Below, piece by piece: positions 1-28,451 of a DNA stretch of 29,012 bases (position 1 is its first letter; every line of letters begins with the position of its first letter). Under the pieces are notes generated by a model. That model was not told where the DNA came from. It was given only the letters and a program-made list of their open reading frames with translations, and made no database searches. The stretch covers positions 1 to 29,012 of the forward strand of contig JBMOPW010000005.1 in the NCBI GenBank assembly GCA_049322915.1. The letters are read 5' to 3'. The translations under genes were made by a program, and so were the position numbers. The stretch is from Candidatus Zhuqueibacterota bacterium (GTDB lineage: Bacteria; Zhuqueibacterota; Zhuqueibacteria; Thermofontimicrobiales; Thermofontimicrobiaceae).

Positions 1-183
1 TTACTGAAAAACACCGTTCGACTTACTGAAAAACGAATGTCTGGCGGCGCCGATCAGTTTTTTTGATAAAATGACCTGAATTTATGCCCTTGTTTTGTCT
101 CTAAATTTTCATTTTAGAAATGTAGGTGGTAATAAAATAAAAATGGCCCATGCCCGTTAAACTGACGAATCCCGGGAAAGGCG

Positions 184-1431
184 CTATTTCACCAGTATCG
201 CTCCGTACTTGCACCAGCGCACGCACTGGGGATCGCCGGCGCACAGGTCGCAGATGACCGGGAATCCCTGATCATCAAAATGGATCACCTGGAACGGGCA
301 CACCTCCGCGCACACGCGGCACCGGGTACAGCGCTCCGGATCCAGCGCGATGTAGCCTTTTTCGTGGATGAACAGCGCGCCGGGCTGGCACGACTTGATG
401 CATTTTTCGCACAGGGTGCACACATTCACTTTATTCAAAGGCGGCGGCTGATCCACAGGTTTGGAATCGATTCGCAGCCGCGCGCCGTTAATGCCAAATG
501 TTGATTGATGCGTCTGCACACAGACCGTCTCGCAGACGAGGCAGCCGACGCAATTTTTGGAATTGGCCCGCAGCCGAATGGCGGCCTGGCGCGGTGGCTC
601 AAAAATCTCCGCGATGGTTTTGCGGCCATGCACCAGATCGCACAGATCTTCCACCATTTTTTTGGGGTCTTTGGCTTTGGTGACATTGCGGCCGAACACG
701 GTGCCGCTGGCCCCGGCGCGGAGGGCTTCATCCACCAGTTCCAGCGCATCGCGGGGCACATCCGATTTGGCGCCGCCCAGCACCAGCACCGGCACCCGCG
801 ATTCATCCACCAATTGCTTGAATGTCATCACATCCCCGGTGTAGGGAATTTTCAGCGCGTCGGCGCCGATCTCCACAGCAATCCGCGCGGAGGCAATGAG
901 TATCTCGGCGATGTTCACGCCGGTGACCATGCCGCCCACAGCCATGGGCTCGATGATGAGCGGCAGTCCGACTTTGCGGCATTCCTGAGCGAATACGGCG
1001 GACTGCTCCAGATTGATCGCTTCGAATTCATCGCTGTAGCCGATGAAATAGTAAATGGTGATCGCCGAAGCGCCCAACTGCAGCGCATCTCTGGCGCGGG
1101 ATGTGGCCATTTTTCTGAATTTCAGCACCGGCAGCACATTGCTGACATTGGATCCGCCCAGACGCGGCAGGTTCATCCAGTCCGCGCGCACGATCACCGC
1201 CGGTTTGTCTGCGCCCATGAACATTTTGCCCATGCGAAGGACAGTCCCGAACGACATCAGCACGCCGTCCGCGCCGCCGGCAACCACCTTTTCCAGTATG
1301 TTTCGTAAATTGATCACATTGGCAGTGGGATCCGACATCCAGCCGTGATCCGCAGCGACGCAAACCGCTTTTCCATCGGAAGGGTTGAACAGTCGGTTCA
1401 TTCTGGCCGTTTTTCCCGGGTTAGCAGACAT
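184..1431 (-). CDS. Class I (DhnA/FbaB/LsrF-type) aldolase fused to a C-terminal 4x[4Fe-4S] ferredoxin domain
   Basis: N-terminal ~275 aa has the DeoC/FbaB motifs AADHG, GADGVL, PLIIE, GADALKIPY (Schiff-base Lys), VLVLGG and FGRNV. The C-terminus has 16 Cys in four groups (CVGCLVCETVC, CTLCEKCIKSC, CTRCRVCAEVCP, CDLCAGDPQCVRWC), as in DmsB/CooF/HydN-type ferredoxins. Confidence 0.9.
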   Translation of the reverse strand: MSANPGKTARMNRLFNPSDGKAVCVAADHGWMSDPTANVINLRNILEKVVAGGADGVLMSFGTVLRMGKMFMGADKPAVIVRADWMNLPRLGGSNVSNVLPVLKFRKMATSRARDALQLGASAITIYYFIGYSDEFEAINLEQSAVFAQECRKVGLPLIIEPMAVGGMVTGVNIAEILIASARIAVEIGADALKIPYTGDVMTFKQLVDESRVPVLVLGGAKSDVPRDALELVDEALRAGASGTVFGRNVTKAKDPKKMVEDLCDLVHGRKTIAEIFEPPRQAAIRLRANSKNCVGCLVCETVCVQTHQSTFGINGARLRIDSKPVDQPPPLNKVNVCTLCEKCIKSCQPGALFIHEKGYIALDPERCTRCRVCAEVCPFQVIHFDDQGFPVICDLCAGDPQCVRWCKYGAILVK

Positions 1432-1434
1432 GAT

Positions 1435-2199
1435 TTATCCTCTTCCCTTCTTCAATTGGTGTATCGATTTCAAATAATCCGGTTCCTGCAAGATCTTCTC
1501 CGAAAACATGACCCCTTTCAGTCCCAAATCGCAGAGGGCTTTGAACTCGTCCAGGGTCAGGAGCGAATCCGCCCGCGCAATGACAGGCACGGTGGACCAG
1601 CCGGCAATGAGCGAAAGGACGTCGCGACGGCACACCGGCACAATCATCGCATCAGCGCCGGCCTCCATCATGAACGACACGCCCAGTTTGATGGTATCTT
1701 CAAAATTCACCTCGCTCACCTTGGGGCCGATGGGCCGAATATCCACAAAAACTGGCAGCGCTAACTTGTAACTCTGCCGCAGCAGATGGGAAATCGAGCG
1801 AATATTGGTGGCTTCGAATTCATCACTGTAGCCCATCAACAGCGTGGCCACAGCCGCCGAAGCGCCCAACGCCATGGCATCGCCGGCGCTGGAGATTTCA
1901 ATCCGCCAGACATCGGTGACCGGCAGGCAGAAATCAGCGTCGCGGTAAGCGTTGGTCCAATCCACGCGCACCATGCCGGCCGCGCGATTTTTGCCGCACA
2001 GTTCTTCCGAGAGATGCTCCATTTGGCCGGGATTCACAATGACGCCGTCAAAATCGGCGCAGCATGAATGAAGCACCGCTCGCAAATCCTCCGCCTGCGG
2101 CGGAGCGCCAATGCTGGAGGCAATCGTCGTATCCAGCAGCAGGGAGCGCTGCTGGAGAATATCGTTGATTCGAATCGCTTTGCCAATGTGTGTCTGCAT
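1435..2199 (-). CDS. Class I aldolase-like protein, probably catalytically inactive paralog of the downstream aldolase
   Basis: Shares VRxDWxN, LGASA and GYSDEFEAxN with the 415 aa neighbour. Has GADAMIVPV in place of GADALKIPY and lacks DHG and GRN. RBS-like AGAGG upstream; ends 3 bp before the next start. Confidence 0.8.
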   Translation of the reverse strand: MQTHIGKAIRINDILQQRSLLLDTTIASSIGAPPQAEDLRAVLHSCCADFDGVIVNPGQMEHLSEELCGKNRAAGMVRVDWTNAYRDADFCLPVTDVWRIEISSAGDAMALGASAAVATLLMGYSDEFEATNIRSISHLLRQSYKLALPVFVDIRPIGPKVSEVNFEDTIKLGVSFMMEAGADAMIVPVCRRDVLSLIAGWSTVPVIARADSLLTLDEFKALCDLGLKGVMFSEKILQEPDYLKSIHQLKKGRG

Positions 2200-2302
2200 A
2201 GTTTCCTCTTTTTTTTATCCGCCGATGGAGACTGAACCGCATCGCGGCCGGGGCGGATTTGTGTTTTTGTGCTGAATCAACTTGCTATGATGGGATTGTG
2301 AT

Positions 2303-5300
2303 TCACTTTTCCAGTCGCAGATTCAACCAGCTTCCGCTCTGCGAAAGATTTGGCAGCCAGTCCTGAGTTCGGAGCACCAGCCGCAATTCCTTCACACCGG
2401 ACACCGGCGCAGAAAAGCTCTGGGGTTCCGACCGCGCATTCAACGGCCGGCTGACGAAAATTTCTTTATCATCGCCGTACACGGCGAATTGCATTTTGCT
2501 GCCATTGCCGGAGCGAACCGCAGCAGCCAGCATGGGATTCATATCAATGGTCAGCGCGCCGGACAGGGTGCGCCACGAACCGTCCAGCGTGTAAATCAAC
2601 TCCGAATTGGGGATCACGCCGATGCCTTTGTCCGCGCCCGCTTTCAGCGAGCGTCCCCAGTAATTGCGATCCTTTTCTGCCAGGCCGGTCCACTGATCGA
2701 CCTGATTCGGTCTGAAATCGCTCAGGTAGACAGGCGATCCGGCAGCGTCGGTCAGGGATTTCTCCACCACCCGACGCGGCACAATGGAGCCGCGAACCGC
2801 GTCATCGGCGCTCCACTGACTGGCTGAATCCAACTGCCAGTTGCGGTCGAAAAAACCGCACAGGAGCGGAGTCCCATCCACGGTCAGATTGCCCTGGTGA
2901 AAATTAATGCCAACCGTCCGTTCATCAAAAATGACATAATCGAATTCTGCGCCGATGCGTTTGACAATGCCGTCCAGCGCTTGCCAGGAATTACCGGCAT
3001 AGACGAGGACGTACCGGTCGCGATGGGCCGGATTGGGGTAGACAAACGCCGCACCGGTCTGTGCGCCGCTGAATGTCCGGCTGCCGGCTCGAATTGTTTT
3101 CCGGCTGAACTGAATCGGCAGTTCCGCGGCGATCTTTCGGGTCACGCTGTTGCTGTTCGGACCGCCGAATAAAATCAGGTTGTACCGGGACTGATCTTCA
3201 TCCGTCAACTCGGAATCATTTTTCAATCGGCACGGCGCGTGCTGCCAATCCGCCCACTGATCCGAGAAAGATTCCGCTTCCTGCTGGTTGATTCCGGTCT
3301 CTGTTTTCGAACCCTGCGTGCCCACCACGAGCATGAATCCGGAATTGAACACGTCCTGCATGGGGCCGCACACGGCGCTGGTCTTGACGAGTCCCGATGC
3401 TGCGCCCTCCGTCACCAGGGCCCAGTCCGTCGCGCTGCCGTCCGCCTGCACAGTCGCCCGGAATCGGATCGTCCCGGCATCGGAGAGCGCGATATTCAGA
3501 TTTGTCCGATCATCGATGGTGACTGCGATCGGCTGCGCTGGGTCCACCAGTCGGTCATTGAGCCTCACGCTGAATTGAGCCACATTGCCGGTGCGAATGC
3601 GCACTGCCCGGCGGTCGATTATTTCCGCGTCAATGGAGGCAAACGCCCCCTCCAGGCTGAACGAATTGATCTCAATCCACCAGGCGCGGTTGTGCTGCAG
3701 AGAGGCGGTTTTGTAGACCACGCGCGAAGGAAATGCGTCGCGCTTCTTATCCTCGAACCAGTCGTAAATGTCGTTGTCCATCTGCGGATCAAAGCCGCCG
3801 TGCTGTGCCGTCGGATGCTCGATGTAGGTGATGTCGTAGCCCAGCGCTTTCAGCCGGGCGACTATCTTGCGACTCTGCCCGACCGGCACGATGTCATCCA
3901 GCACGCCGTGATTGCACAGCATGGGAAGATTCACGGCATTGTCAGCAAACGACAGAGCGCTTCGCGCCGCAAAGATGTACTGGCGCAGCGGCGAGAACTC
4001 CGTTGTATCGAGCCCGGTCCAGAACGCATATTCCGTTGGTCCCATGATTGGGGCCAGCGCCGCGAATTTGTCAGGGAAGGCCAATCCGACATTCCATGTG
4101 CCGGCGCCTCCCATGGAACCGCCGGTCAGGTAAATCCTTTCCTCGTCGATGGAATACAGGCGCTGCACTTCCTGCAGCACCGTCATCACATCGTTTTCAC
4201 CGATATTCTGATACATGGTATTGCCGCGGCCAAACGGATTGACAAGAATATAACGGCCTTTGTTGGTGGCGTGAGGCATGAATGACGGCAGGAACTGGTT
4301 ATCGTGCCAGGCCGTGAACCCGGGATCGTAGCCGTGCAAATTGATCACCAGCGGGTAGGGCGCGCCCGGCGCATAGGCCTCCGGGACCCAGACTGCGTAC
4401 CCTTGCAGACTGCCCTCGATTTCGGAGTAATAGCCGCGAAGGAAATTGCCTTTTTGCTGCCGGAACGGATTCTCGCCCTGGCTGATTTTTTTGAAGAGCG
4501 AATCAACATCGGCCAGACCGTTTTTCAGAAAATCCGCAAACAGCGCCAGATGGCCTGGCCGCTCCGTCTCCTCAAGGAGCTTCTTCAACGGCACCAGCTT
4601 CACATCCAGACTCGCCAGGTCATTGGGATGAATTCCGGCCGGGCATGCGTTTCGCATGGCCGCAATGTCCTCTTCCAGATTCCGGATATGCACCTGAAGC
4701 GAATCGAACCGATGTTGAATGACCTCCACCTGAGCCGTGGCCTTGAACGATTGGCCATCGGCGCCGGTCACTGCGGCGACGAGTTCGAATTCGCCATCCG
4801 GCCAGCCGGATATATCGATCTTTTTCTCGCACGAAGCATGTTTTTCGGAGATTGACTCGCTGCATTGAAATGCCAGTTTGCAGGACGAGTCGTAGGCCGC
4901 CATGCTCATTGGCAGTGTTGCTCCCGGCGCACCAAAATCCAAACCGTACGCCCCGGCCGACAGCCTCAAATGTCCGGCGTCGCGATAGACCTTTCGATCC
5001 GGCCTGACGAAAACCGTGGGAAAATCATCCGCGTCCTGCGGAGCGATGAGGCCCTGCCTGACCATGCTGTACCAGATCCACCGCGCGTTGTGCTGTAATG
5101 TCTCGCTGGCCGGGCTCGCACGGAGACCGGACGCGATGTGCTGTTGCGCCGCTTCGAATTGGTTATTTTCAGCCTGAATGATGGCGAGATTGTTGTGGAC
5201 GCCAGCCAGATCATCCGGCCCGGCGAGAAACGCCCGCATCTCTGATTCAGCAAGGATCAGATCGCCCTGCAAAAAATGCATCTTCGCCGCAGCCATGTCG

Positions 5301-6046
5301 CTGGATTTTTTTTCGCCCTCAGCCCAGCGCCACAATTTCGACGGTCGGATATTGGTGTAGACATTGAAGTCATCCACGTAGGCGTGCGCGCCCCGGTCCT
5401 GAATCATGCTGATGGAACAGGCCGTATTGGTCGGTTGCAGCGGCTGATAATCCAGCGCAAGGGCATTGTAAAAATGAGGCTCATCCGTTTGCTTGCCCTG
5501 CCAGATTTTCATTTTGAACGAGGCCGGTTTCTCGCCCCGGACGTCGAGCCGCACCCATTGCCACGCACCAAAGACAATTTGCCCCGGTCGCGAGACGAAC
5601 AGCGCCTCCGGCAACGCGCCTACTCTGGCCTTTTTGATGGTGATAACGCCATCGCCGGAGATTTCAAATTTATAATCGCTCCAGCCCTGTTGGCGCACGC
5701 CAACGGTGAACAGAAACTGGCCTCCCTCAACCGGTTTCAGGCGAAACACGGTCGAAAAATCGCGTTTCAGAATCGCCTGGTCCAACTTCGGGATGGCGGC
5801 GAAAATTTGCTGGGTGAGATTGCTGCTATCCAGGGAGACAAACTCGCCATCCCGCACCTGCCAGGCGCCAAAGCCCCACACCTTCATGTCCTGCCATTTT
5901 TCAGCCGAACCGCCGTCGAAATTGTCCGAAAATAGATCCCCTTTTTGAATGAACTGAGTTCTGGCGCTGGACCATGCCAGGCACAGCAGAAGCACTGCTG
6001 TCGTCACAATGAGCGTAAATTTTTCCACAGGCGACGTCCTCTTCAT
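2303..6046 (-). CDS. Secreted multidomain serine hydrolase (beta-sandwich + TPR-like + alpha/beta-hydrolase of S9/esterase type + C-terminal NPCBM/NEW2-like domain)
   Basis: Hydrophobic signal peptide. Hydrolase motifs PLVINLHG, IYLTGGSMGGAG (nucleophile), HGVLDDIVP (Asp) and QHGG (His). C-terminal VYLSD...GIGVIPNS...FAVYGDDKE...VSGVKELRL resembles NPCBM. Start overlaps the ROK stop (ATGA). Confidence 0.8.
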   Translation of the reverse strand: MKRTSPVEKFTLIVTTAVLLLCLAWSSARTQFIQKGDLFSDNFDGGSAEKWQDMKVWGFGAWQVRDGEFVSLDSSNLTQQIFAAIPKLDQAILKRDFSTVFRLKPVEGGQFLFTVGVRQQGWSDYKFEISGDGVITIKKARVGALPEALFVSRPGQIVFGAWQWVRLDVRGEKPASFKMKIWQGKQTDEPHFYNALALDYQPLQPTNTACSISMIQDRGAHAYVDDFNVYTNIRPSKLWRWAEGEKKSSDMAAAKMHFLQGDLILAESEMRAFLAGPDDLAGVHNNLAIIQAENNQFEAAQQHIASGLRASPASETLQHNARWIWYSMVRQGLIAPQDADDFPTVFVRPDRKVYRDAGHLRLSAGAYGLDFGAPGATLPMSMAAYDSSCKLAFQCSESISEKHASCEKKIDISGWPDGEFELVAAVTGADGQSFKATAQVEVIQHRFDSLQVHIRNLEEDIAAMRNACPAGIHPNDLASLDVKLVPLKKLLEETERPGHLALFADFLKNGLADVDSLFKKISQGENPFRQQKGNFLRGYYSEIEGSLQGYAVWVPEAYAPGAPYPLVINLHGYDPGFTAWHDNQFLPSFMPHATNKGRYILVNPFGRGNTMYQNIGENDVMTVLQEVQRLYSIDEERIYLTGGSMGGAGTWNVGLAFPDKFAALAPIMGPTEYAFWTGLDTTEFSPLRQYIFAARSALSFADNAVNLPMLCNHGVLDDIVPVGQSRKIVARLKALGYDITYIEHPTAQHGGFDPQMDNDIYDWFEDKKRDAFPSRVVYKTASLQHNRAWWIEINSFSLEGAFASIDAEIIDRRAVRIRTGNVAQFSVRLNDRLVDPAQPIAVTIDDRTNLNIALSDAGTIRFRATVQADGSATDWALVTEGAASGLVKTSAVCGPMQDVFNSGFMLVVGTQGSKTETGINQQEAESFSDQWADWQHAPCRLKNDSELTDEDQSRYNLILFGGPNSNSVTRKIAAELPIQFSRKTIRAGSRTFSGAQTGAAFVYPNPAHRDRYVLVYAGNSWQALDGIVKRIGAEFDYVIFDERTVGINFHQGNLTVDGTPLLCGFFDRNWQLDSASQWSADDAVRGSIVPRRVVEKSLTDAAGSPVYLSDFRPNQVDQWTGLAEKDRNYWGRSLKAGADKGIGVIPNSELIYTLDGSWRTLSGALTIDMNPMLAAAVRSGNGSKMQFAVYGDDKEIFVSRPLNARSEPQSFSAPVSGVKELRLVLRTQDWLPNLSQSGSWLNLRLEK

Positions 6047-6963
6047 TGAGAAATTCGTTTGAATAGTAATCGGCTGGCGCCCAGCATGGCGCTGGTTTCG
6101 ATGTGCACAGCCGGTTTGATCACAGTGGGCAATTTTTCATTGGCAAAAACCTGTTGCAACGCCGGCCCAAACAGATGAAATGATTGGGCGATCTGTCCGC
6201 CAATCACGAGACACTCGGCCTGAAAATTCCGAACATGCCAGACCAGCATGTGACCCATGATCTGACCGGTCTCCTCGAAGGCAGTCAGCGCCGGGACGTC
6301 CCCGGCGTCGGCGCGCTCGGCGATGAGTTTCACCGTGACATTCTTTTCCTCGCTGCGGAGCAATTTCAGGTATGTGCCGATGATGCCCCGGCTGGAGATT
6401 CGGTCATCCAGGATGCCGTCCTTGTACTTCCGCCCGCCAATCCAGGCCAGCGCCGGAATGCCCGGCCCGGACGCGACAATGTCACCATTGGCGATGAACC
6501 CGGAGCCCATGCCTGTCCCCAACGTCAGACCAATGATGCGGTTGAAGTCCCGGCCTGCGCCGATCCAGGCTTCCCCCAGCACAAAGGCCCAGGCGTCGTT
6601 TTCGAACATGATGGGAAATTCAGGCGTCAGGTTCAGTCCGGCCCGGAATATCTCCGTCAAATTGACGCCGTAAATGGCTTCGTATTTATCCACGCCTTTG
6701 ATCAGACTGACGCCGTTGGCGTAATCGAACGGGCCGGGCATGCCGATGGCAATGCCGGCAATGGCCACCTGCCGCTCGGTTGCTAGATGAAAGGCATTGT
6801 CCAGGACGTGGATGAAGGAATCGATGATGTGCTGAAATTCACCCTTGGAATGGATGGTCGTTCGGTTGACCGAGCCGTGCAGGATGTCACCGGACTCAGC
6901 CACAATGGCCGATTTGACTGAACTGCCCCCGACATCCAGGGCAATGGCGAAACGGTCGTTCAT
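6043..6963 (-). CDS. ROK family sugar kinase
   Basis: Motifs IALDVGGS, GIAIGMPGP, FENDA and LTLGTGMGSG. No N-terminal HTH and no CxCG zinc motif. The ATG at 6963 (MNDRFAIALD) is preferred over the TTG at 7023 because it sits just before the phosphate-1 motif. Confidence 0.88.
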   Translation of the reverse strand: MNDRFAIALDVGGSSVKSAIVAESGDILHGSVNRTTIHSKGEFQHIIDSFIHVLDNAFHLATERQVAIAGIAIGMPGPFDYANGVSLIKGVDKYEAIYGVNLTEIFRAGLNLTPEFPIMFENDAWAFVLGEAWIGAGRDFNRIIGLTLGTGMGSGFIANGDIVASGPGIPALAWIGGRKYKDGILDDRISSRGIIGTYLKLLRSEEKNVTVKLIAERADAGDVPALTAFEETGQIMGHMLVWHVRNFQAECLVIGGQIAQSFHLFGPALQQVFANEKLPTVIKPAVHIETSAMLGASRLLFKRISQ

Positions 6964-13395: not shown

Positions 13396-14292
13396 TCACT
13401 GCACCAGTTCAAAGAAACGCTGCTCGACCCTGTCCTCGTCCAGGCCCTGGCCGATGATCACGCAACGGATTTCCTCGCTGTGCGTCTTTGCCACCGGTTT
13501 CAGCGACCATGTCTCAGACGTGGCATCGACAAAATAAACCTGATGCTCGATTGACACAAAGCCTTTCATGCGCATTATCTGATCCTGGAATTCGGCGCGG
13601 AATTTTTCCCAGTTCGCGCGCCGGAACGAGCCGCGTTTCTCCAGCGTCACGGAGACGAAGGGATCCGGTCGCCCTTCTCCAGGCGCGTCGGTCGCAGCCG
13701 GGATCGGCCGCATCAGGTGGGACACGCTCTCTAACGGGAACGCCGCGTATTGCGTGGTCAAAATTTCGACGGAGGGATGAATCGCTTTCACCGCGGCGAC
13801 AACCTGCTCAACCTGATTCGGTGGAACCAGGTCGGTCTTATTGACCAGCACCAGATCGGCGCTGCGCACCTGGGACGCCGGCGCTCTGAGGTTGTCCTTG
13901 ATTTTCAGGAAATTCTGGCAGTCCACCAGACAAAGGCAGGCCTGCAATTGAATGTGGTCTTTCAGATTGGGCAGAGCCAGCATGGCCTCCATTTCCGACG
14001 TATCCGCCAGCCCGGTCGCTTCGATGATCAGTAAATCCGGCTGCAACTGGACCGCGATTCGCTCCACTTCGTAGATGAAATCGGTCCGGACGCAGATGCA
14101 GAACAGACTGCCTTTGTTGAGCTCCACTTTTTCGTAATTGCCCTGAACCAGCATTTCGCCGTCGATGCCCACTTTCCCGAATTCATTGATCAGCAGGACA
14201 GTCCGCTGACTGCGGTAATAGCCGATCAGTCGGTTCAGCAGCGTGGTTTTGCCTGCGCCCAAAAAGCCGGTGAGCAAAATTGCGGGAATCAT
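13396..14292 (-). CDS. CobW/COG0523 family G3E metallochaperone GTPase
   Basis: Motifs LTGFLGAGKTT, INEFG, GSLFCICV, LIIEATG, NKTD and C-terminal RMKGF...VIIG. The start at 14292 overlaps the upstream stop (ATGA). Confidence 0.9.
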   Translation of the reverse strand: MIPAILLTGFLGAGKTTLLNRLIGYYRSQRTVLLINEFGKVGIDGEMLVQGNYEKVELNKGSLFCICVRTDFIYEVERIAVQLQPDLLIIEATGLADTSEMEAMLALPNLKDHIQLQACLCLVDCQNFLKIKDNLRAPASQVRSADLVLVNKTDLVPPNQVEQVVAAVKAIHPSVEILTTQYAAFPLESVSHLMRPIPAATDAPGEGRPDPFVSVTLEKRGSFRRANWEKFRAEFQDQIMRMKGFVSIEHQVYFVDATSETWSLKPVAKTHSEEIRCVIIGQGLDEDRVEQRFFELVQ

Positions 14293-15911
14293 TCCAGATT
14301 TTTCAGCCATTCCTTAATCACCTCCACCGAAGGCACGCGACCCACAGATTTCACGGTCTGCTCCACAGCAATGATGGCCGGAGTGGATGCAACACCGTAT
14401 TTGTAAATTTCTTTTTCATCTTTGATATGAATAATTTCGACCAGGCTGCCCAATTCTTTGGCCGCCTGCTGGACGTTCTCCCAGGCCTGAGCGCAGGTCT
14501 CGCAGCCATCGCCCAGCACCAGCAATCTGCCATGATGCGACCGCAGTTTCATGAAGAATTTTTCATTGATGCGATCCTGAATCGCTTTCACCAGTTCATC
14601 CCGCGAGGGGATGGTGCTGACAAATTTGATCTGGCCATCGATGCAAATAGTGGGGATGTTTTTCACCATCAGGCCCATCATGAATTCGACAGATTCCCGC
14701 TCCTTGATTTTATGCTCCCGCCAGATGACGAGATTGCTGAAGAGCGGAGCCACGGATTTCACCGCTTCGACCATGTACTGGCACGGCGCGCAACCTTCGG
14801 AATCCAGCGTGATCACATCGATGATCACCTTTTCCGCTTGACCGTAATCCGCCATGTTGATCCGCGTCTCCACAATCGAGGATTTATCCAGCAACTCCCG
14901 CGCGACATCCAACTTGTACGGATCGTGCACCAGTTCAGAGATAGCTTTCAAATTCGCCGGAGGCACGGCATAGGGCAAATCGCAGCCGGGGGCCAGAATG
15001 TAGCCGGTGTCACCGCCCACATCGATGCACTCGATGGCATTGCGTTTCGCATCGTCCTCGGTTCCCATCAGCAGCACAATGGTCAGTTGCAGATTCCCGC
15101 CGAACGAAATGCCGAATTTCTGGCAGATAGTTTTCACATAATCCAGCGGGATATTTTCATCGATGGAGACATTGTCCGGCCTGGTCTCGCACATGGCCTC
15201 AATATTTTTCTGAGCGTGGCCGCAAACGAAGAAGGATGAAAAGGCCTGCAACCGTCGCACTTCCTGAAAGAAATTGGTCGCTGCCGGCGTGACGAATTCC
15301 CGAAACGCATCCGGCGAGATCTGGCTGGTCATGGGATCGACCAGGGCAATGATGTCGCAGCCGGCATCGATGTACATCTGCGCCATTTTTTTAGCGATTT
15401 CATTGGCGTACAACACCAGTTCTTTCACCCGGTCCGGATAATCGAACATGTCCATGAAAATATCAGTGCCTTTCAGGTGCAGCGCCAATGTGAACGGGCC
15501 GGTCACCAGCCCGTAAAGCGCCACATCCCTGGTCTCCTTTTTGAGCGTCCGGATCGCCTGCAAAATCGCCGGGATTCGCCCTGAATTTTCATCCGGAATG
15601 GCCAGATCGCTGAGCTGTCTGCCATTGCTCAGCACGTGGTTGATCACAGCCGGAGGATTGTCCTTCGCCCATTGCAAATCGCAGCCCATGGCCTCGGCCT
15701 CGATTTGCAAATCGAACATCACCGGAATTCCATCCGGACGGTACAACCGAATCGCTTCTTTCGTCCCCTGTACCATCAAATCAGCGGAGCGCAAATATTC
15801 TTCCGCGTTTTTTCCGATCAACGCGCCGCCGTGGCACCCCACAAATGGCACCCACGGTGTCCGCTCCGTCTTCTTCCCCATCAATGCGTCAAATAATAGT
15901 TGTTTGCCCAT
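14289..15911 (-). CDS. MtaA/CmuA-like (URO-D fold) methylcobamide methyltransferase fused to two thioredoxin-like domains
   Basis: N-terminal ~345 aa has DLQIEAEAMGC, GPFTLA, ISPDAFREF, FFVCG, GGNL and ILAPGCD. Then Trx-like LDSEGCAPC...NIPTICIDG and LGDGCETC...YGVASTPA...GRVPS. Confidence 0.85.
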   Translation of the reverse strand: MGKQLLFDALMGKKTERTPWVPFVGCHGGALIGKNAEEYLRSADLMVQGTKEAIRLYRPDGIPVMFDLQIEAEAMGCDLQWAKDNPPAVINHVLSNGRQLSDLAIPDENSGRIPAILQAIRTLKKETRDVALYGLVTGPFTLALHLKGTDIFMDMFDYPDRVKELVLYANEIAKKMAQMYIDAGCDIIALVDPMTSQISPDAFREFVTPAATNFFQEVRRLQAFSSFFVCGHAQKNIEAMCETRPDNVSIDENIPLDYVKTICQKFGISFGGNLQLTIVLLMGTEDDAKRNAIECIDVGGDTGYILAPGCDLPYAVPPANLKAISELVHDPYKLDVARELLDKSSIVETRINMADYGQAEKVIIDVITLDSEGCAPCQYMVEAVKSVAPLFSNLVIWREHKIKERESVEFMMGLMVKNIPTICIDGQIKFVSTIPSRDELVKAIQDRINEKFFMKLRSHHGRLLVLGDGCETCAQAWENVQQAAKELGSLVEIIHIKDEKEIYKYGVASTPAIIAVEQTVKSVGRVPSVEVIKEWLKNLE

Positions 15912-17089: not shown

Positions 17090-20000
17090 CTATCGCAGCA
17101 CGAGCAATTTCCTCTGCTTCACAAAATCGCCGGCGCGCAGGCGATAGAAATACACGCCGCTTGTGACGGACTGACCGGAAGAATTTTTGCCATCCCATTC
17201 AACGCGATGCTGCCCGCCCTTTTTGATCTCATCGACGAGTACGCAGACCAACTGTCCGTTCACATTGTAGACAGTGATGGTGACGCGCTCATCCCGGGGT
17301 AATTCATAGCCAATCGTCGTGTTCGGATTGAATGGATTGGGATAGTTCTGGAGCAACCGATACGACCTGGCCGGGGCTTCCGCGAGGTTGTTCACTCCGG
17401 TCACTGAAAAATTCGCCCGCAGCGTTTTCAGTTCATGGGAATTCACCGCGACCTGAACGCCATTGGCGTTGACCGAAGCCGCGCCGATGGTATTTTCCAC
17501 GCCATCCGTCACCTGGGCGGAATGCCATTGGAACACGTCCGATGCGACCTGGGCGAAGGCGGCAGTCCCGCTCAATTCCAACAACCGGAAGATGGCGCCG
17601 TTTTCGTCCTCGGCCTGTTTCACATTCACGAGCATGACATTGGCCGGATCGACGCTGAAAAAGCTGGCTGCTGAAGCGGAGAGCGAGCCGGTTTCGTTGC
17701 TGTCCGTGAGTTTTGCCAGCAGCGGATTGCTGAACGCCCAATTGAATTGGGCTGCTGCGATGTCGTCGAATGATCCCGGCGTAGCGGCAAACGAGTAGTG
17801 CGTCACGATCATCGGACTCGCCCCAGGTTCGCCGATGATGGGACCGACGCTCCCGTTCGCAAACATGCCCTCATCCTCTTTTTTTATGAAGCGGGAGATC
17901 AGCGTCGCCGTGGCCGGATCGAACTCCGTGTTGAGGCCATGAAATGTGTCGAATTCCACAACAAAGGATTCCCGATTCGCCCAGTGAATGGAGTAGCCGC
18001 CATCGCTCAGACAACCGCCGTGCTGAACGGCGAAGTAGCCGCGCGGCGCGCCGGGCAGATGGTCTGTCGCCGGATTCCAGAAACCGTGCGCGCCCTCCAG
18101 CCTGACGTCGAAATTTGACAGGTCAAACGGGAAGGTGTAGGCGTAATATTCGAAATTGATATCCTGAGTCACCCAATCCATCTGATTCCGATCCATGGTG
18201 TTCACAATATCCACGCGGGGAATCGCCTGATAGAGCCATATTTCCGTGCGCACGAACGGCGAGCCGCTGCGGGTGATCACCAGCGCCTTTGCCACATCCC
18301 CTCGGATCGAACTGTCGATCTGAGCCGCTCCCGGCGGAATGGCGACATAATCGCCGGCAGCGGCTTCAAGACTATTGGCCTTGATGCAGCCGTTAAATTG
18401 GTACTGACTCGCGCCATCGATGAGTTCGCGCTGTTCCTGTTTATCGAACAGGCTGATAATGCTGCCATCGACCGGGCTGATAGTCACCCGGTAAAAGTCA
18501 TTGGCAATGGCGGCTTCGACCTGGCTCTGTTCTGAGTTGATAGTGTGACTTCGCCCCTGACTTTTCTCAGCCGGCGACGGGACCAGATGAAACACCTTAT
18601 AGCCCACAGAGGGCACCTGCGAGGCGGTGAACTTGATGTCGCCGGTCGATTCCAGAATTTGAAACGGCACTGCGCTCCCGGTCGCAGCATCGACCAGCGA
18701 GAAACTCCGGCCCAGCCAGTCCTGGCTCAATGGCAATGTGACGACATCGCTCCGCTCCCAGGACAGCGGATTGAACACCAGAATCCCCGGCGATTCTGTA
18801 CTCACCTGAGCCGCCAGTTCCGCCAGATTCATGTCAACCAGCCCGTAGGCGGAATCATAAGCATCTTTGGCGTAGTGGAACGCAATTTCGCTCTGATGCT
18901 GAGCCTCATCGTAGGTCATCAGTCCGGGCCAGGGCGTGCCGCCGCCGCTGTGCTCGTCGAACTGGAGCATATTTTCATAAATCCGGTTCACCACCTGCGC
19001 GGGATAGCTCGCCCCGGCGACCGCCGATTGGATCACTGCCAGTTTTTCAGCGGTGGTCGTCAGCTCGTGCGCTGCGCGGTTCATCGCCATGCTCTGCGGC
19101 GTGTTCAGCGAGATATGATCCCAGCCGCCGCTCCAATCGCCGCGATAGGTCTCAAATTGGGCGCCATATTTTTCTTCCAGATGCACGAAAAAATCCTCAG
19201 GCCGGGCCACGATCATCCTGGGATTGGCATAGGTTTTATTCCACAGACTGGCCATGCCAGTGTGCAGCGTTGTGGGCTCGGTATTTTCAATCTTCCCGAC
19301 CATGATCATGATCGCATCATAGGGATATCCGGCCGCTTTGTAGTCTGCCAGTTCCGCTGACAGCGACTGATAAAAGGTGCTCAACTGCGACATGTTGAAC
19401 GTCGTGTACCATTCAATGTAACTGCCGTAGCTGATCCAGGTGAGCACCGAGTTGCCATCCGGTCCCTGCCAGTAAAAGGGATTGTGCTGCCTGGGCAGTT
19501 TCGGCCCCCCGCCGAACGCATCGTTGATGCCGGTGGCCAGATATTTCACCCCGGCATTGGCCAGCACCGATGGCAACGCCCAGGCATAGCCGGGCACATC
19601 ATTTTGATAAATCGTATTCAATTCAAAACCGAAGTCCTGGCGGTACCTGGCTGCCGGGTAGAGGAACCGGCTCATTTCCTCGACGCCCAACGTGGCCGAA
19701 TGCATGGTGGCATAGCCGGCGCACATATCCATCCGACCCGATTGCACCTGCTCCCTGAAATGCGCGATCTCCTGCGGCGTGCTTCGCTTCAACCATTGGT
19801 CCAATTGCCAGATGCTTTCGATGGTCCATTTGTACGTCGGTATGTCATCGATGTACTGAATGGCCTTATCGATGATGGTTTTGTACTGATCCGCCACCAC
19901 ATCCTGGGGATCGGTGAAACCAATATCCAGATGCGTGAAATGCACCAGATAGACATAACGAATCGGCGAAGCAATGCCCGGCTGGGCGAAATAGAATGCG

Positions 20001-21391
20001 CCCATATCCGCAACAGTCCCGTCTGGATCAACCCCGCTGTTGGGATCGCCGGCATCGATGCAGGGGGAATTCGCGCTGAGTCCGTACTGCGACGTGTCAG
20101 CCCCGGAGAACAGCGGGTCAGCCGAGATCGCGCCCTGTCCGCCCGCGCAACTCACGTAATTTCCGCCGGCATTGTTCCAGACATCGTTGTAGGAGATGGC
20201 CGCGTGATCCCGGGCTTTGACGCCAAAACCGGTTCCATTGACAAAAATATTATTGAAGATGGACACCGTCGAGCCGAAACTTTCCAGTCCGTCCTGATAG
20301 TCGCTCAGCGTATTATTGTGAAATGAACTGCCCGGACAGAGATTGAACACCGCGGCGATGTTGCCGGAGCCGACAAGGAGATTGCGGGAGATATCGACGG
20401 CGCTGCTGTGCACGTCGATCCCAATGGCGCATGAGCGAATGGTATTCGCCCGAAAGACCAACTCGCTGTTCAAGACCTGAATTCCCCCGTCCTGGTAGTT
20501 TGATCCGACGAACTCATTCTCCGTCACTGACACGCCATTGGAGAATTCGATAGAAATTCCTCCCTCGCCGGACGCGATTGAGAATCGATTATCAGCAATC
20601 ACCACGCTATCGACCGAATGAACCTGGACGAGATGGAATCCCTGGCCGGCGCGCTGAATCGTCAGATCGTGTAGCTGCGACCCGGCAGCGCAGTGAACCA
20701 CCGGGCCCTGGCCATTGCCCTCGACAATAGTAGCAGCCGAAGGATCGCCGAACAGGCTGATGCCTGGCGCGAGGATGACATTTTCAGAATAGGTTCCCGG
20801 TGAAATAGAAATGATCATGCCGGAATCGGCCGCATCGATGGCCTGCTGAATGGTGGGGAAATCGCGCGGCACCTGCAACTGGCCGATCACGCTGACCGGA
20901 TTGTTGAAGGAATAATCGTACACATTGCCCCAGCTTGTATCATAACCCAGAGCGTCTTCTCCCAGCGTGTAGCCAATCTGGTAGTCGCCGAGGGTTGCGC
21001 CGGCGCGGAGCGTGCACGTCAGCGTGGCCGGAATGGAGGCTTCATCCGCCAAAAAAGATTCTGCAGAGAGAAAACCCAGCCAGACATAATCCGGCCCGCT
21101 CGGATAAACAGCTTCGCAGGAATCCGCCCAGAAGGGACTGGGGAGAAATTCGCCGCTCCCAAATTTTTCGCTCTGATAGGCCACACCAGTGACGGTCCAA
21201 TCTTTGGGCGCCAGCACGGTGAAAAATACGGCATGGGGATTGGGATCCGTGCCCTCGCTGCGGATGGTCACCGTCACCGACATGGTATCCCCCGGCGCTA
21301 CTGTCTGCGGCTGCAAGACGCCATCAATTTCAAGACAACTGGAAAACAGTATCGCGACAGCCAGCGCTAACAACAGAGCATAGCGAACCAT
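17090..21391 (-). CDS. Secreted GH38-like glycoside hydrolase (alpha-mannosidase-like) with parallel beta-helix domain and C-terminal FlgD-Ig/T9SS-type sorting domain
   Basis: Signal peptide ending FSSC. VPRDFPTIQQAID...SPCIDAGDP...DMGA marks a beta-helix module. GH38 motifs HFTHLDIGF, NDVPG, FDEH, VFNPLSWER, VPSVGY and NVKQAED. C-terminal LLQNYPNPFNP...SGVYFYRL. Confidence 0.88.
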   Translation of the reverse strand: MVRYALLLALAVAILFSSCLEIDGVLQPQTVAPGDTMSVTVTIRSEGTDPNPHAVFFTVLAPKDWTVTGVAYQSEKFGSGEFLPSPFWADSCEAVYPSGPDYVWLGFLSAESFLADEASIPATLTCTLRAGATLGDYQIGYTLGEDALGYDTSWGNVYDYSFNNPVSVIGQLQVPRDFPTIQQAIDAADSGMIISISPGTYSENVILAPGISLFGDPSAATIVEGNGQGPVVHCAAGSQLHDLTIQRAGQGFHLVQVHSVDSVVIADNRFSIASGEGGISIEFSNGVSVTENEFVGSNYQDGGIQVLNSELVFRANTIRSCAIGIDVHSSAVDISRNLLVGSGNIAAVFNLCPGSSFHNNTLSDYQDGLESFGSTVSIFNNIFVNGTGFGVKARDHAAISYNDVWNNAGGNYVSCAGGQGAISADPLFSGADTSQYGLSANSPCIDAGDPNSGVDPDGTVADMGAFYFAQPGIASPIRYVYLVHFTHLDIGFTDPQDVVADQYKTIIDKAIQYIDDIPTYKWTIESIWQLDQWLKRSTPQEIAHFREQVQSGRMDMCAGYATMHSATLGVEEMSRFLYPAARYRQDFGFELNTIYQNDVPGYAWALPSVLANAGVKYLATGINDAFGGGPKLPRQHNPFYWQGPDGNSVLTWISYGSYIEWYTTFNMSQLSTFYQSLSAELADYKAAGYPYDAIMIMVGKIENTEPTTLHTGMASLWNKTYANPRMIVARPEDFFVHLEEKYGAQFETYRGDWSGGWDHISLNTPQSMAMNRAAHELTTTAEKLAVIQSAVAGASYPAQVVNRIYENMLQFDEHSGGGTPWPGLMTYDEAQHQSEIAFHYAKDAYDSAYGLVDMNLAELAAQVSTESPGILVFNPLSWERSDVVTLPLSQDWLGRSFSLVDAATGSAVPFQILESTGDIKFTASQVPSVGYKVFHLVPSPAEKSQGRSHTINSEQSQVEAAIANDFYRVTISPVDGSIISLFDKQEQRELIDGASQYQFNGCIKANSLEAAAGDYVAIPPGAAQIDSSIRGDVAKALVITRSGSPFVRTEIWLYQAIPRVDIVNTMDRNQMDWVTQDINFEYYAYTFPFDLSNFDVRLEGAHGFWNPATDHLPGAPRGYFAVQHGGCLSDGGYSIHWANRESFVVEFDTFHGLNTEFDPATATLISRFIKKEDEGMFANGSVGPIIGEPGASPMIVTHYSFAATPGSFDDIAAAQFNWAFSNPLLAKLTDSNETGSLSASAASFFSVDPANVMLVNVKQAEDENGAIFRLLELSGTAAFAQVASDVFQWHSAQVTDGVENTIGAASVNANGVQVAVNSHELKTLRANFSVTGVNNLAEAPARSYRLLQNYPNPFNPNTTIGYELPRDERVTITVYNVNGQLVCVLVDEIKKGGQHRVEWDGKNSSGQSVTSGVYFYRLRAGDFVKQRKLLVLR

Positions 21392-25807: not shown

Positions 25808-26413
25808 TCACTGGATCAAACGCGCGCACACCCGCGCAGCAAGAGTCGCGACATCTTCGGCGTGAAAAACCCGCCTGAGACCGGCATCGAAAAGGATGTC
25901 CGCCGTCGCCGGGAATTCTTCATCGCCACGCCGGTAAACGAGGGTGACGGCGATATTCCCGAAGCAGCGTATCCGCGCTCCGAAATCGCCGACCGGGTAC
26001 GGCTCCCAATCGAATCGATCCATGTTTCGTCTCAGCCCGTCCATGTCGTTCCCGAATTTTCCAATGAGCGGCCGAATGGCGCGCGCGACAAAGGGTTCCC
26101 AATAAAACTGACCGCCGCTGATATTACGAAACGATATCAACTCTGTCGAACCGGACAGGGGCGCATCGCACAAAAGGCTGTGCAGAATCAGGATTCTATC
26201 GACGTTCGGCGCCGGCAGGCCGGTTTGAGCCAATGTCAATTCGAATCGGACCGTATCCAGTTGCACCGTCTCTCCGAAGGCGCGGAACGTGATGACGCCG
26301 GATGCGTCCGGCCGGGGCAGGCCAGCATTTTGGCAGCGACGATTCACGTCAATCCCGGCCAGCCCGGCGACTGCGAGCCGAATGGCCTCCTGTTGCGCTG
26401 TTTGATGCGACAT
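25808..26413 (-). CDS. DUF3786 domain protein
   Basis: Motifs ILILHSL, LISFRNISGG.FY..F, GD and GDEEFPA.A.ILFD...EDV; the family is commonly found beside corrinoid activators. Confidence 0.85.
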   Translation of the reverse strand: MSHQTAQQEAIRLAVAGLAGIDVNRRCQNAGLPRPDASGVITFRAFGETVQLDTVRFELTLAQTGLPAPNVDRILILHSLLCDAPLSGSTELISFRNISGGQFYWEPFVARAIRPLIGKFGNDMDGLRRNMDRFDWEPYPVGDFGARIRCFGNIAVTLVYRRGDEEFPATADILFDAGLRRVFHAEDVATLAARVCARLIQ

Positions 26414-26510: not shown

Positions 26511-28451
26511 TCATTGCGCTGCCCCGGGCGTTGACCGCCCGCTGCTGTTCTTCAATAATCGCCCAACTGATGGAAACCGACTTCCATCCGTGTGCGGCAG
26601 AAACAGTGCGCCGGTGTATTGATTCATGTATTCCGGATCTGCATTCAAATCCAGATAGGTGATTCGCCGCGCCAGCTCGGCCTGTTTGCGCCGGTGTTCC
26701 TCGGAAATCAGAACCATGTACGCGCCAACCAGCGACGCATTGCCGATGAAAACATACTTTTCCTGAGACACGTCCGGAATCAGCCCGATGACAATTGCTT
26801 TTTCGAGATCGATGTTTCGACCGAATCCGCCGGCGATGTAGATTTTGTTGATGTCGGTGAAATGCAGTCCCACCTGGTCCAGCATCAGCGAACAGGCGCA
26901 GTAGATGGCTGCTTTGGCGCGGAGAATATTTTCAATGTCCATCTCTGAAATGACAATCGCCTGGCCGTGTTCGGTGTGCTGAGCCGGCGCCAGCACGTAA
27001 TGCGCCCGCCGGCCATGAATCCGGATGAACTCCGAAGGCTTGGTTCGGTTGAATTTTCCGGCGGCGTCGAGCCAGCCTGTGAGGAATAAATTTGCAATCA
27101 GGGAAATCATGCCGGAACCGCAAATGCCCCGGGCTCTGGTATCGCCGATGACCGAGCACGCAGCTGCGCCGGTGACGGGATCGATGTCCACGCGCTCGAT
27201 GGCGCCGGTTGCCGCGCGCATGCCGCAATCGATGCCACCGCCTTCAAAGGCCGGGCCGGCCGAGCAGGCGCAGCCCATCAAAAAATCGTGATTGCCCAGA
27301 ACCACCTCGCCGTTTGTCCCCACATCGATGAACAGGTTCACCTCCTCGGATCCGGCCGCCAGGTCCGTGCACAGCAGCCCGGCCGTGATATCGCCGCCCA
27401 CGTAACTGCCCACGCACGGCGACAGATACACCGGCGCGAACGCATTCATACGCAATTCCAATTCGCCGGCGACGAAGTCCGGAGCGTGGAGCAATGTCGG
27501 CGTGTAGGGCGCCAATCGGATGTATTCGGGATTCAGTCCCAGCAGCAAGTGCATCATCGTGGTATTGCCGGCGATCACGGCCGCGCAGATTTCCTCCAAG
27601 TCCACTTTGCCATAGCGCGCGGCCGCTTCGATCAGATCATTCACGGTTGACACGACCCGCGAGCGCAACTCCTCCAGCCGCTCGGCTGTCCTGGCGTAAT
27701 CGATGCGGCTGATCACGTCCAGCCCGCAGTTGATCTGACCGTTGTAGTCGGTGTGGGTCGCTAAAATTTTGCCGGTCGCGAGATGGGCGAGTTGCACGGC
27801 GATGGTCGTCGTCCCGATGTCCACGGCGACGCCGAAATGGCGCTGGGTCTCGTCGCCAACCTCGATCCGGATGATGCGCGCCGCGCCGCTGCTTTTGGCG
27901 AGCGTCACGGTGATGCGCCCGGCGTCGGCCCGCACTGTTTGCGCGACAGCTCGACAGACAGAGGCCGGAATGGATAGCGCGGCCTCGCCAATGTGCGGTT
28001 TCAGGCAACGGCTGATCCGATCCATATCCGATAGTCCATCGCCCGACTGCGGCGCCGGCGCCTGAATCGCCAGCTTCATTGCCGCGGGCTGCAATTGCCA
28101 TTGTTGCGGCAGCAACTCGGGTTGTACCAGATGGATGGAAAGGCCATCATCACTGAATTTGCCGTTGCTTCTGGATAGCTGTTCCGGAATTTCGCACACC
28201 AGTGGCTCATCGCCCGCGCGGGTCCGGCAGGCCAGAACATATCCCAGGAAGATGGCCGTCGCCGACAGCAGTCCCAGACTTTCGGTGGACACTTTGCCGC
28301 TGAGAATCCGCACAACGCAGCGTCCGCAGGTGCCTTTTCCGCCGCACGGAGTGTCGAAGTCGATCCGGGCGGAGCGGAACGCGTCTATCAGCTCAGCGCC
28401 AGGGGCCACGTCGATTTCTTTTTCAGTCGGGAGGATTTTGATGATGGGCAT
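26511..28451 (-). CDS. Reductive activator of corrinoid proteins (RACo/RamA-type ASKHA ATPase, DUF4445) with N-terminal [2Fe-2S] domain
   Basis: CGGKGTCGRC...LAC ([2Fe-2S]) followed by AVDIGTTT, GLDVISRI, GNTTM, YVGGDI, IDVGTNGE, CSAGPAFEG, GICGSG, AGGFG and GNASL. Confidence 0.95.
   Translation of the reverse strand: MPIIKILPTEKEIDVAPGAELIDAFRSARIDFDTPCGGKGTCGRCVVRILSGKVSTESLGLLSATAIFLGYVLACRTRAGDEPLVCEIPEQLSRSNGKFSDDGLSIHLVQPELLPQQWQLQPAAMKLAIQAPAPQSGDGLSDMDRISRCLKPHIGEAALSIPASVCRAVAQTVRADAGRITVTLAKSSGAARIIRIEVGDETQRHFGVAVDIGTTTIAVQLAHLATGKILATHTDYNGQINCGLDVISRIDYARTAERLEELRSRVVSTVNDLIEAAARYGKVDLEEICAAVIAGNTTMMHLLLGLNPEYIRLAPYTPTLLHAPDFVAGELELRMNAFAPVYLSPCVGSYVGGDITAGLLCTDLAAGSEEVNLFIDVGTNGEVVLGNHDFLMGCACSAGPAFEGGGIDCGMRAATGAIERVDIDPVTGAAACSVIGDTRARGICGSGMISLIANLFLTGWLDAAGKFNRTKPSEFIRIHGRRAHYVLAPAQHTEHGQAIVISEMDIENILRAKAAIYCACSLMLDQVGLHFTDINKIYIAGGFGRNIDLEKAIVIGLIPDVSQEKYVFIGNASLVGAYMVLISEEHRRKQAELARRITYLDLNADPEYMNQYTGALFLPHTDGSRFPSVGRLLKNSSGRSTPGAAQ

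Follow-up and report, generated by a model that had tools for sequence, protein, structure and literature searches.

A DhnA-type aldolase fused to a tungsten-enzyme-type ferredoxin subunit, in a cassette with a lysine-less paralog and an aldehyde oxidoreductase

The window analysed here is a whole contig (C5; 29,012 nucleotides) of a Candidatus Zhuqueibacterota bacterium. Near its start, on the minus strand at 184..1431, lies a gene that joins a DhnA-type class I aldolase to a 4x[4Fe-4S] ferredoxin domain and ends 183 bp from the contig start. The locus raises the question of whether this fusion is real and what an aldolase would do with four iron-sulfur (Fe-S) clusters. We find that the ferredoxin domain is of the WorS/AorA type, the small subunit of tungsten-type aldehyde:ferredoxin oxidoreductases (AORs). 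With a probability of roughly 0.6, the gene joins such a small subunit to an active DhnA-type aldolase without the usual catalytic Tyr, and its product forms one complex with an aldolase-like paralog and an AOR. The fusion is thus probably part of a complex not yet described, in which a sugar phosphate is split and the aldehyde set free is immediately oxidised.

The gene is a single uninterrupted open reading frame (ORF) of 415 amino acids with an ATG start. Residues 1-280 (592..1431, minus strand) make up the aldolase domain, supported by PDB sequence matches, Foldseek, and column counts, and residues 283-415 (187..585, minus strand) make up the ferredoxin domain, supported by four Cys groups and by alignment to solved small subunits. 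Pfam assigns residues 23-251 to DeoC (PF01791; E = 3.2e-25; 89.5 bits, cut-off 23.8) and matches residues 335-384 to several 4Fe-4S dicluster families. In NCBIfam, residues 4-277 align to the model for the 2-amino-3,7-dideoxy-D-threo-hept-6-ulosonate (ADH) synthase subfamily with 180 bits, under the cut-off of 241, and residues 287-412 align to the four-cluster N-terminus of PadI. A reading made from the sequence alone (the sequence-only reading) had described a class I aldolase fused in frame to a 16-Cys, four-cluster ferredoxin, and that description was borne out, with the motifs starting at residues 28 (DHG), 189 (GADALKIPY, which contains Lys194), and 247 (GRN). The AlphaFold2 model of the fusion, built from 38 family members, is a confident one; it has a mean predicted local distance difference test (pLDDT) score of 87.8 and a predicted template modelling (pTM) score of 0.72, and consists of a barrel, a short linker at about residues 268-290, and a compact C-terminal domain.

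The fusion is real and is neither an assembly artefact nor a chance read-through. The junction at about 560-620 had been flagged as a place where an assembly might have joined two genes. A Logan contig of run X1 spans window positions 99-2300 with 0 differences and crosses the junction without a stop or frameshift. Run X1 is probably the source sample, so the Logan assembly is independent and the DNA is not. Runs X2 and X3 contain only short, diverged pieces of the region, and no RNA run is listed among the sequencing runs containing window positions 1-2300. With the whole protein as the query, both DeoC and Fer4 families were present in one protein in 117 of the 120 best clusters (50-100% identity, about 411-455 amino acids); the other three clusters are 274-369 amino acids long, and two of them are marked partial. 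The same fusion is encoded at 29 loci from named metagenome-assembled genomes (MAGs). Because the relatives and the MAG loci carry the fusion and the X1 contig is intact across the junction, chance read-through is excluded. Clustering at 50% identity leaves a compact fused family: five full-length representatives (P0124, P0126, P0128, P0129, and P0131) and some fragments come first, and beyond these lies a continuum of unfused DhnA-type aldolases. No longer form, such as an aldolase-ferredoxin-AOR triple fusion, appeared among 8,000 candidates, which argues only weakly against such forms. A close stand-alone version of the ferredoxin domain was represented among 8 candidates by one match, a 130-amino-acid protein marked partial, and a naturally split gene is thus unsupported.

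The 16 Cys residues of the ferredoxin domain fall into four groups starting at 294, 338, 368, and 394, the last of which reads CDLCxGDPxCVxxC; across 38 aligned family members, 15 of the 16 are invariant and the remaining one is at least 90% conserved. When residues 280-415 alone were searched against all solved chains, four subunits matched over all four groups: 6x6u_B, the Fe-S subunit of Pyrococcus furiosus WOR5 (WOR5-S; E = 1.8e-13), 8c0z_C, AorA of Aromatoleum aromaticum (E = 4.4e-12), 9mqx_E, the small subunit in 9mqx (E = 4.9e-11), and 4z3w_E, BamC (E = 8.6e-8). Each of these partners an AOR-family tungsten enzyme, and all share the CDLCxGDPxCVxxC ending. The polyferredoxin MvhB outscored these small subunits but matched repeated two-cluster stretches only. 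The fused domain thus has the features by which a WorS/AorA-type subunit can be recognised, namely, 16 Cys residues in four groups and end-to-end alignment with the solved small subunits, and it would be expected to bind an AOR large subunit and to carry Fe-S clusters.

An AOR gene is indeed the neighbour of the fusion in related genomes. ORFs in the related loci were called and clustered, and the cassette genes were located by tblastn. A protein of about 600-615 amino acids with AFOR_N and AFOR_C domains (Pfam) is encoded downstream of the fusion in 26 of 29 loci; the other three (L017, L025, and L027) were left out of the count because a contig edge follows directly after the fusion, so an AOR adjoins the fusion in 26 of 26 assessable loci. 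In all 31 related loci, of which 29 are fused and 2 unfused, a divergent aldolase paralog precedes the aldolase gene, and in the 29 fusion loci it is the immediate neighbour. The three genes are closely packed: the median gap is 9 bp after the paralog and about -1.5 bp after the fusion (start codons estimated). Neither an FAD/NAD subunit nor a bifurcating module was found in the cassette among the clustered ORFs of the related loci. In three loci a ThiS-like gene of 77 amino acids follows the AOR, and it resembles the WorX of tungsten-enzyme operons described in the available text of PMC13328260. Downstream of the AOR, six loci encode a conserved protein of about 207 amino acids (for example, at 11171-11794 in L005) for which neither Pfam nor NCBIfam gave a match, and after it a DUF4432 protein.

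In the genome of the window itself, which contains three AOR genes, the orthologous AOR, the candidate partner, lies on a separate contig of 3,068 bp (C8). This AOR is 88% identical to the cassette AOR of locus L001, and the two fusions are 87% identical. C8 is oriented so that, were its end joined to the start of the window, all three genes would share a strand. Bases 1..128 of the window, probably a repeat at the contig end between cassette and AOR, lie on a different contig in X1, where the depth is 177 compared with 76 for the rest (2.3-fold). The kilobase upstream of the AOR on C8 (2087-3068; L043) is AT-rich, contains no ORF of at least 80 amino acids, and carries short direct and inverted repeats; the ends of C8 and C5 are both AT-rich with similar short repeats. 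Because of the greater depth of the 128-bp start and the AT-rich, repeat-bearing kilobase on C8, we consider that a repeat probably broke the assembly between fusion and AOR. In L001, an AAA_14/DUF4143 gene occupies the place of the putative repeated element.

The AOR on C8 has both AFOR domains, the four cluster Cys residues, and the second-shell residues of an AOR sensu stricto, these last being Thr243, Glu313, Tyr427, and His448 in the numbering of P. furiosus AOR (PfAOR), with residue names as given in the available text of PMC12096430. In 21 cassette AORs, the corresponding T244, E315, Y429, and H450 do not vary, nor do the cluster residues C289, C292, C296, and C491. The C8 protein scores highest against PfAOR (445 bits), followed by 9mqx_D (440 bits), 9g7j (419 bits), and AorB (380 bits), with much lower scores against FOR (283 bits) and WOR5-L (228 bits). 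The usual unfused arrangement is found in the same organism: on contig C16 (L045), a stand-alone four-cluster ferredoxin of 127 amino acids (3760-4143), 34% identical to the fused domain, precedes a second AOR gene (4355-6268).

Two related loci, L023 and L024, encode a shorter aldolase of 281 amino acids (66% identical) without the ferredoxin domain. Both have kept the paralog, and in both the AOR is not adjacent and a URO-D-like gene follows instead. In a maximum-likelihood tree of the barrels (42 rows: the full set of 32 catalytic-type sequences plus 10 paralogs, the remaining 22 of the 32 paralogs being left out), these two sequences lie deep inside the fused clade as sisters of L012 and L014 (support, 100/98). 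Since they nest within the fused clade, the ferredoxin domain and the AOR were lost together while the aldolase-paralog pair stayed. The sequence-only reading had suggested that the ferredoxin domain might dock an aldehyde-oxidising enzyme and channel the aldehyde to it. AOR synteny in 26 of 26 loci, homology to AOR small subunits, and this joint loss give that idea strong support by context, and physical docking and channelling are predicted from it. As a separate observation, a protein of 411-418 amino acids, whose URO-D domain is reduced to its C-terminal half, is repeatedly encoded beside aldolase-paralog pairs, including the two without ferredoxin domain and AOR (L024, 9612-10847; L023, 1681-2916; L019, 2468-3724).

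The aldolase domain has the features of a DhnA-type class I aldolase, with a DeoC score over the cut-off, a TIM-barrel fold, a Schiff-base Lys, and the Asp of the DHG motif. Its sequence matches among PDB chains are MJ0400 (E = 1e-35), the fructose 1,6-bisphosphate (FBP) aldolase (FBPA) of Thermoproteus tenax, and LsrF. Foldseek returned MJ0400 ADH synthase (2qji) with a template modelling (TM) score of 0.86, the T. tenax FBPA with 0.85, and LsrF with 0.79. Compared with these enzymes (MJ0400, 2qjg; T. tenax FBPA, 1ojx; Escherichia coli LsrF, 3gkf), the fusion has the same TIM barrel (TM, 0.79-0.86) and shares Asp-His-Gly, the Schiff-base Lys, and the GG and GRN phosphate motifs, but it adds the C-terminal Fe-S domain and pairs with a Lys-less paralog. 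Lys194 (codon 850-852) falls in the column that MJ0400 and T. tenax FBPA fill with the Lys of their GADxxK motif, and Asp28, His29, Gly30, Lys194, Gly219, Gly220, Gly247, and Arg248 are invariant in 38 sequences. Also invariant in the family, and different from these three known enzymes, are Glu161-Pro162 and an insertion with Arg82-x-Asp84-Trp85 (RxDWxN). Because Glu161-Pro162 and the insertion are common to the nearest unfused relatives as well (35-43% identity), the fusion arose inside a wider, uncharacterised DhnA subfamily.

The paralog (254 amino acids; 1435..2199, minus strand) begins the cassette 3 bp upstream of the fusion, and its assignment rests on identity to the barrel, column counts, and AlphaFold2 with Foldseek. 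It is 29% identical to the aldolase domain of the fusion, and its model (pLDDT, 93.6) has a query-normalised TM score of 0.84 to MJ0400 at 16% sequence identity, indicating the same barrel. However, the column of Lys194 holds I, L, V, M, A, or S in 32 of 32 paralogs, so that the Schiff-base Lys is missing. The phosphate motifs have gone as well, with Glu in place of Arg248 in 26 of 32 and the GG motif absent. The RxDWxN motif is retained. By these residues the paralog is a pseudo-enzyme. Solved DhnA-type enzymes are ring-shaped homo-oligomers, and for this reason the simplest role for the paralog would be that of a structural partner in a mixed oligomer with active barrels.

We propose that the aldolase domain would use Lys194 and its phosphate site (GG/GRN) to bind a phosphorylated ketose and would cleave it to a fragment of the dihydroxyacetone phosphate (DHAP) type and an aldehyde that is probably unphosphorylated. 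The AOR, held on the fused ferredoxin domain, would then oxidise the aldehyde to the acid, and the electrons would pass from tungsten to the AOR's own cluster, on to the four fused clusters, and finally to soluble ferredoxin.

Several observations weigh against this proposal, and the first of them concern the active site. By HMMER alignment, Met163 (codon 943-945) stands at the position of Tyr146 in T. tenax FBPA and of the Tyr in MJ0400, and Val165 stands where T. tenax FBPA (Arg148) and MJ0400 have Arg. In 32 family sequences the Met163 column holds Met in 27, Leu in 4, and Ile in 1, and never Tyr. In the YPRG strand of T. tenax FBPA, we take Tyr146 to be the catalytic residue and Arg148 to bind the distal phosphate. 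The claim of an intact aldolase in the sequence-only reading therefore holds for DHG, Lys194, and GRN but not for these two positions. The fusion scores under the NCBIfam equivalog cut-offs of NF040816, the archaeal FBP aldolase model (125.4 against 430), TIGR01949 (154.8 against 299), and NF005556, the ADH synthase model (180.2 against 241). The strand that reads Tyr-Pro-Arg-Gly in FBPA and ADH synthase is Met-Ala-Val-Gly-Gly in the fusion and Met-Ala-Val-Thr-Gly in LsrF, so at that strand the fusion looks like LsrF, a thiolase and not an aldolase. Further points concern the cassette. No sequence bridging C8 and C5 was found, and the join is compatible by orientation only. In 3 of the 26 loci (L018, L028, and L031) the AOR match is split between frames, which may be MAG error or decay. 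The persistence of the aldolase-paralog pair in L023 and L024 indicates that its reaction does not require the AOR. Finally, the neighbours do not point to a substrate: carbohydrate-related genes and others, namely, PfkB, FGGY, and ROK kinases, DUF4432, the protein of about 207 amino acids, alpha-galactosidase, glycoside hydrolase (GH) families, glucose-6-phosphate dehydrogenase/6-phosphogluconolactonase (G6PD/6PGL), and 2-keto-3-deoxy-6-phosphogluconate (KDPG) aldolase flank the cassette in subsets of the loci, and these genes vary so that no single pathway emerges.

Taken on its residues, the aldolase domain looks active, yet it does not look like a standard FBP aldolase. The acid-base role of the missing Tyr may have been taken by Glu161. 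Because the GG and GRN phosphate motifs are kept and the distal-phosphate Arg is lost, the pattern suggests a singly phosphorylated ketose as the substrate, cleaved to DHAP and a neutral aldehyde, and such products would suit a broad-spectrum AOR.

One alternative is a glycolytic bypass, in which the aldolase would cleave FBP and the AOR would act like the bacterial GOR or the archaeal GAPOR, converting glyceraldehyde 3-phosphate (GAP) to 3-phosphoglycerate with ferredoxin. DhnA-type relatives do include true FBP aldolases. The GOR of Caldicellulosiruptor bescii (WorL plus WorS) oxidises GAP, according to the available text of PMC13328260 and PMC12096430. Val165 in place of the distal-phosphate Arg and Met163 in place of the catalytic Tyr argue against FBP as the substrate, however, and the cassette AOR is closest to the broad-spectrum AORs and scores 58.7 bits against the NCBIfam model GAPOR_Arch, whose cut-off is 1300. 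The genome also already has a class II FBP aldolase next to a glyceraldehyde-3-phosphate dehydrogenase (GAPDH), and because of this pair we regard the cassette as an accessory route and not the main glycolytic one. We consider a bypass unlikely.

It is similarly improbable that the system runs in reverse, with the AOR reducing a carboxylic acid via the four fused clusters and the aldolase trapping the aldehyde with DHAP, thereby pulling the unfavourable reduction. ADH synthase and other DhnA-type enzymes join an aldehyde to a DHAP-type donor by condensation, and an intermediate that is both reactive and scarce would be well served by a fixed tether. The available text of PMC9295118 describes AORs as reversible acid reductases. 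On the other hand, the neighbours are catabolic (kinases, glycoside hydrolases, and KDPG aldolase), and no dedicated low-potential donor is conserved in the cassette. A more elaborate arrangement, to which we give little credence, would be a large mixed assembly that operates in either direction: active and dead barrels would alternate or mix in a core of the DhnA type, built as a single or double ring, with AORs on the ferredoxin domains, whose clusters would join in a common electron path. If such an assembly existed and ran reductively, carboxylic acids, and even formate via formaldehyde, could be turned into sugar phosphates by a new route as the aldehyde made by the AOR was trapped with DHAP.

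The barrel might instead carry out an LsrF-like acyl transfer or another Schiff-base reaction, with the AOR acting on a different product. The Met-Ala-Val-Gly-Gly strand, so close to that of LsrF, and the invariant Glu161, which is specific to this subfamily, could both be read in this way. The overall similarity is greater to MJ0400 (126 bits) than to LsrF (75 bits), however, and an aldehyde product fits the AOR partner best, which makes this a doubtful alternative to aldol cleavage. That the ferredoxin domain is a redox sensor or feeds the corrinoid reductive activator, independently of any AOR, is highly improbable, although the sequence-only reading had entertained a redox switch and an electron supply to that activator: a RACo gene does lie in the same window (26511-28451), but it and the MtaA-like, CobW, and DUF3786 genes have counterparts in 0 of 39 related loci, the fusion has the full WorS/AorA pattern and an adjoining AOR wherever this could be assessed, and given that partner nothing favours a redox switch.

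The preferred reading, an aldolase coupled to an AOR, can be set beside known systems. As in WOR5/ASOR of P. furiosus (6x6u and 6x1o), AorAB (8c0z), and BamBC (4z3w), an AFOR_N plus AFOR_C large subunit is paired with a 16-Cys small subunit, the four-group Cys pattern and the CDLCxGxPxCVxxC ending are common, and the large subunit of the cassette keeps the cluster Cys and second-shell residues. In contrast to those enzymes, an aldolase here carries the small subunit as its C-terminal domain, and the unit includes a dead paralog of that aldolase. Functionally, the proposal resembles the DmpFG-type aldolase-dehydrogenase pair, in which the aldolase passes a reactive aldehyde directly to the oxidising enzyme. 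This resemblance is functional only, as DmpFG combines a class II pyruvate aldolase with an NAD/CoA-dependent dehydrogenase and has neither tungsten nor an Fe-S wire. The WorS-WorL tungsten enzyme is thus the known part, and its fixed connection with an aldolase and that aldolase's dead copy is the new part. In the scheme of PMC13328260, as far as its available text sets it out, the system is a Class II WOR (WorL plus WorS) with WorS fused to an aldolase.

We found no description of the fusion in the literature, in agreement with the sequence-only reading, which knew of no characterised protein of this architecture; the gene-context tables of PMC13328260, beyond its available text, could list the fusion without comment. 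The word "aldolase" occurs 0 times in the available text of that 2026 WOR classification and of the 2025 review PMC12096430. The same portion of PMC13328260 states that five of 92 tungsten oxidoreductase clades have a member with a defined physiological role and that most clades are assigned to a loosely defined "aldehyde detoxification." A small subunit covalently fused to an aldehyde-making enzyme would name the upstream reaction and reduce the question of the in-cell AOR substrate to a short substrate screen. If the proposal is correct, no aldolase before this one would have had a direct connection to a low-potential Fe-S chain. The cassette is also a clear example, within the DhnA family, of a pseudo-enzyme conserved as a partner.

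The fusion was found in 18 of 167 species genomes of the window's phylum (13 of 105 high-quality ones); with the family of the window included, it reaches six of the 26 families in the phylum. It was also found in MAGs labelled Ignavibacteriota, Bacteroidota, Aminicenantes, Chloroflexota, Thermotogota, and Planctomycetota. With this patchy spread over phyla, the module may be of importance where carbohydrates are fermented in anoxic sediments and biofilms.

Elsewhere in the window, all on the minus strand and identified with Pfam and NCBIfam, a corrinoid methyltransferase set lies more than 12 kb from the fusion. It comprises a CobW-type GTPase (13396-14310), a 540-amino-acid protein with an MtaA/CmuA-like URO-D domain fused to two thioredoxin-like domains (14289-15911), a DUF3786 protein (25808-26413), and the RACo reductive activator. 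Pfam also identified two large proteins encoded on the minus strand. One, of 1,433 amino acids (17090-21391), combines a GH38 alpha-mannosidase-like domain, pectate-lyase-like repeats, and a type IX secretion sorting domain. The other, of 1,247 amino acids (2303-6046), has a prolyl-oligopeptidase/esterase domain and a C-terminal NPCBM domain; L001 and L003, the two closest relatives, have conserved it in the same place immediately upstream of the cassette.

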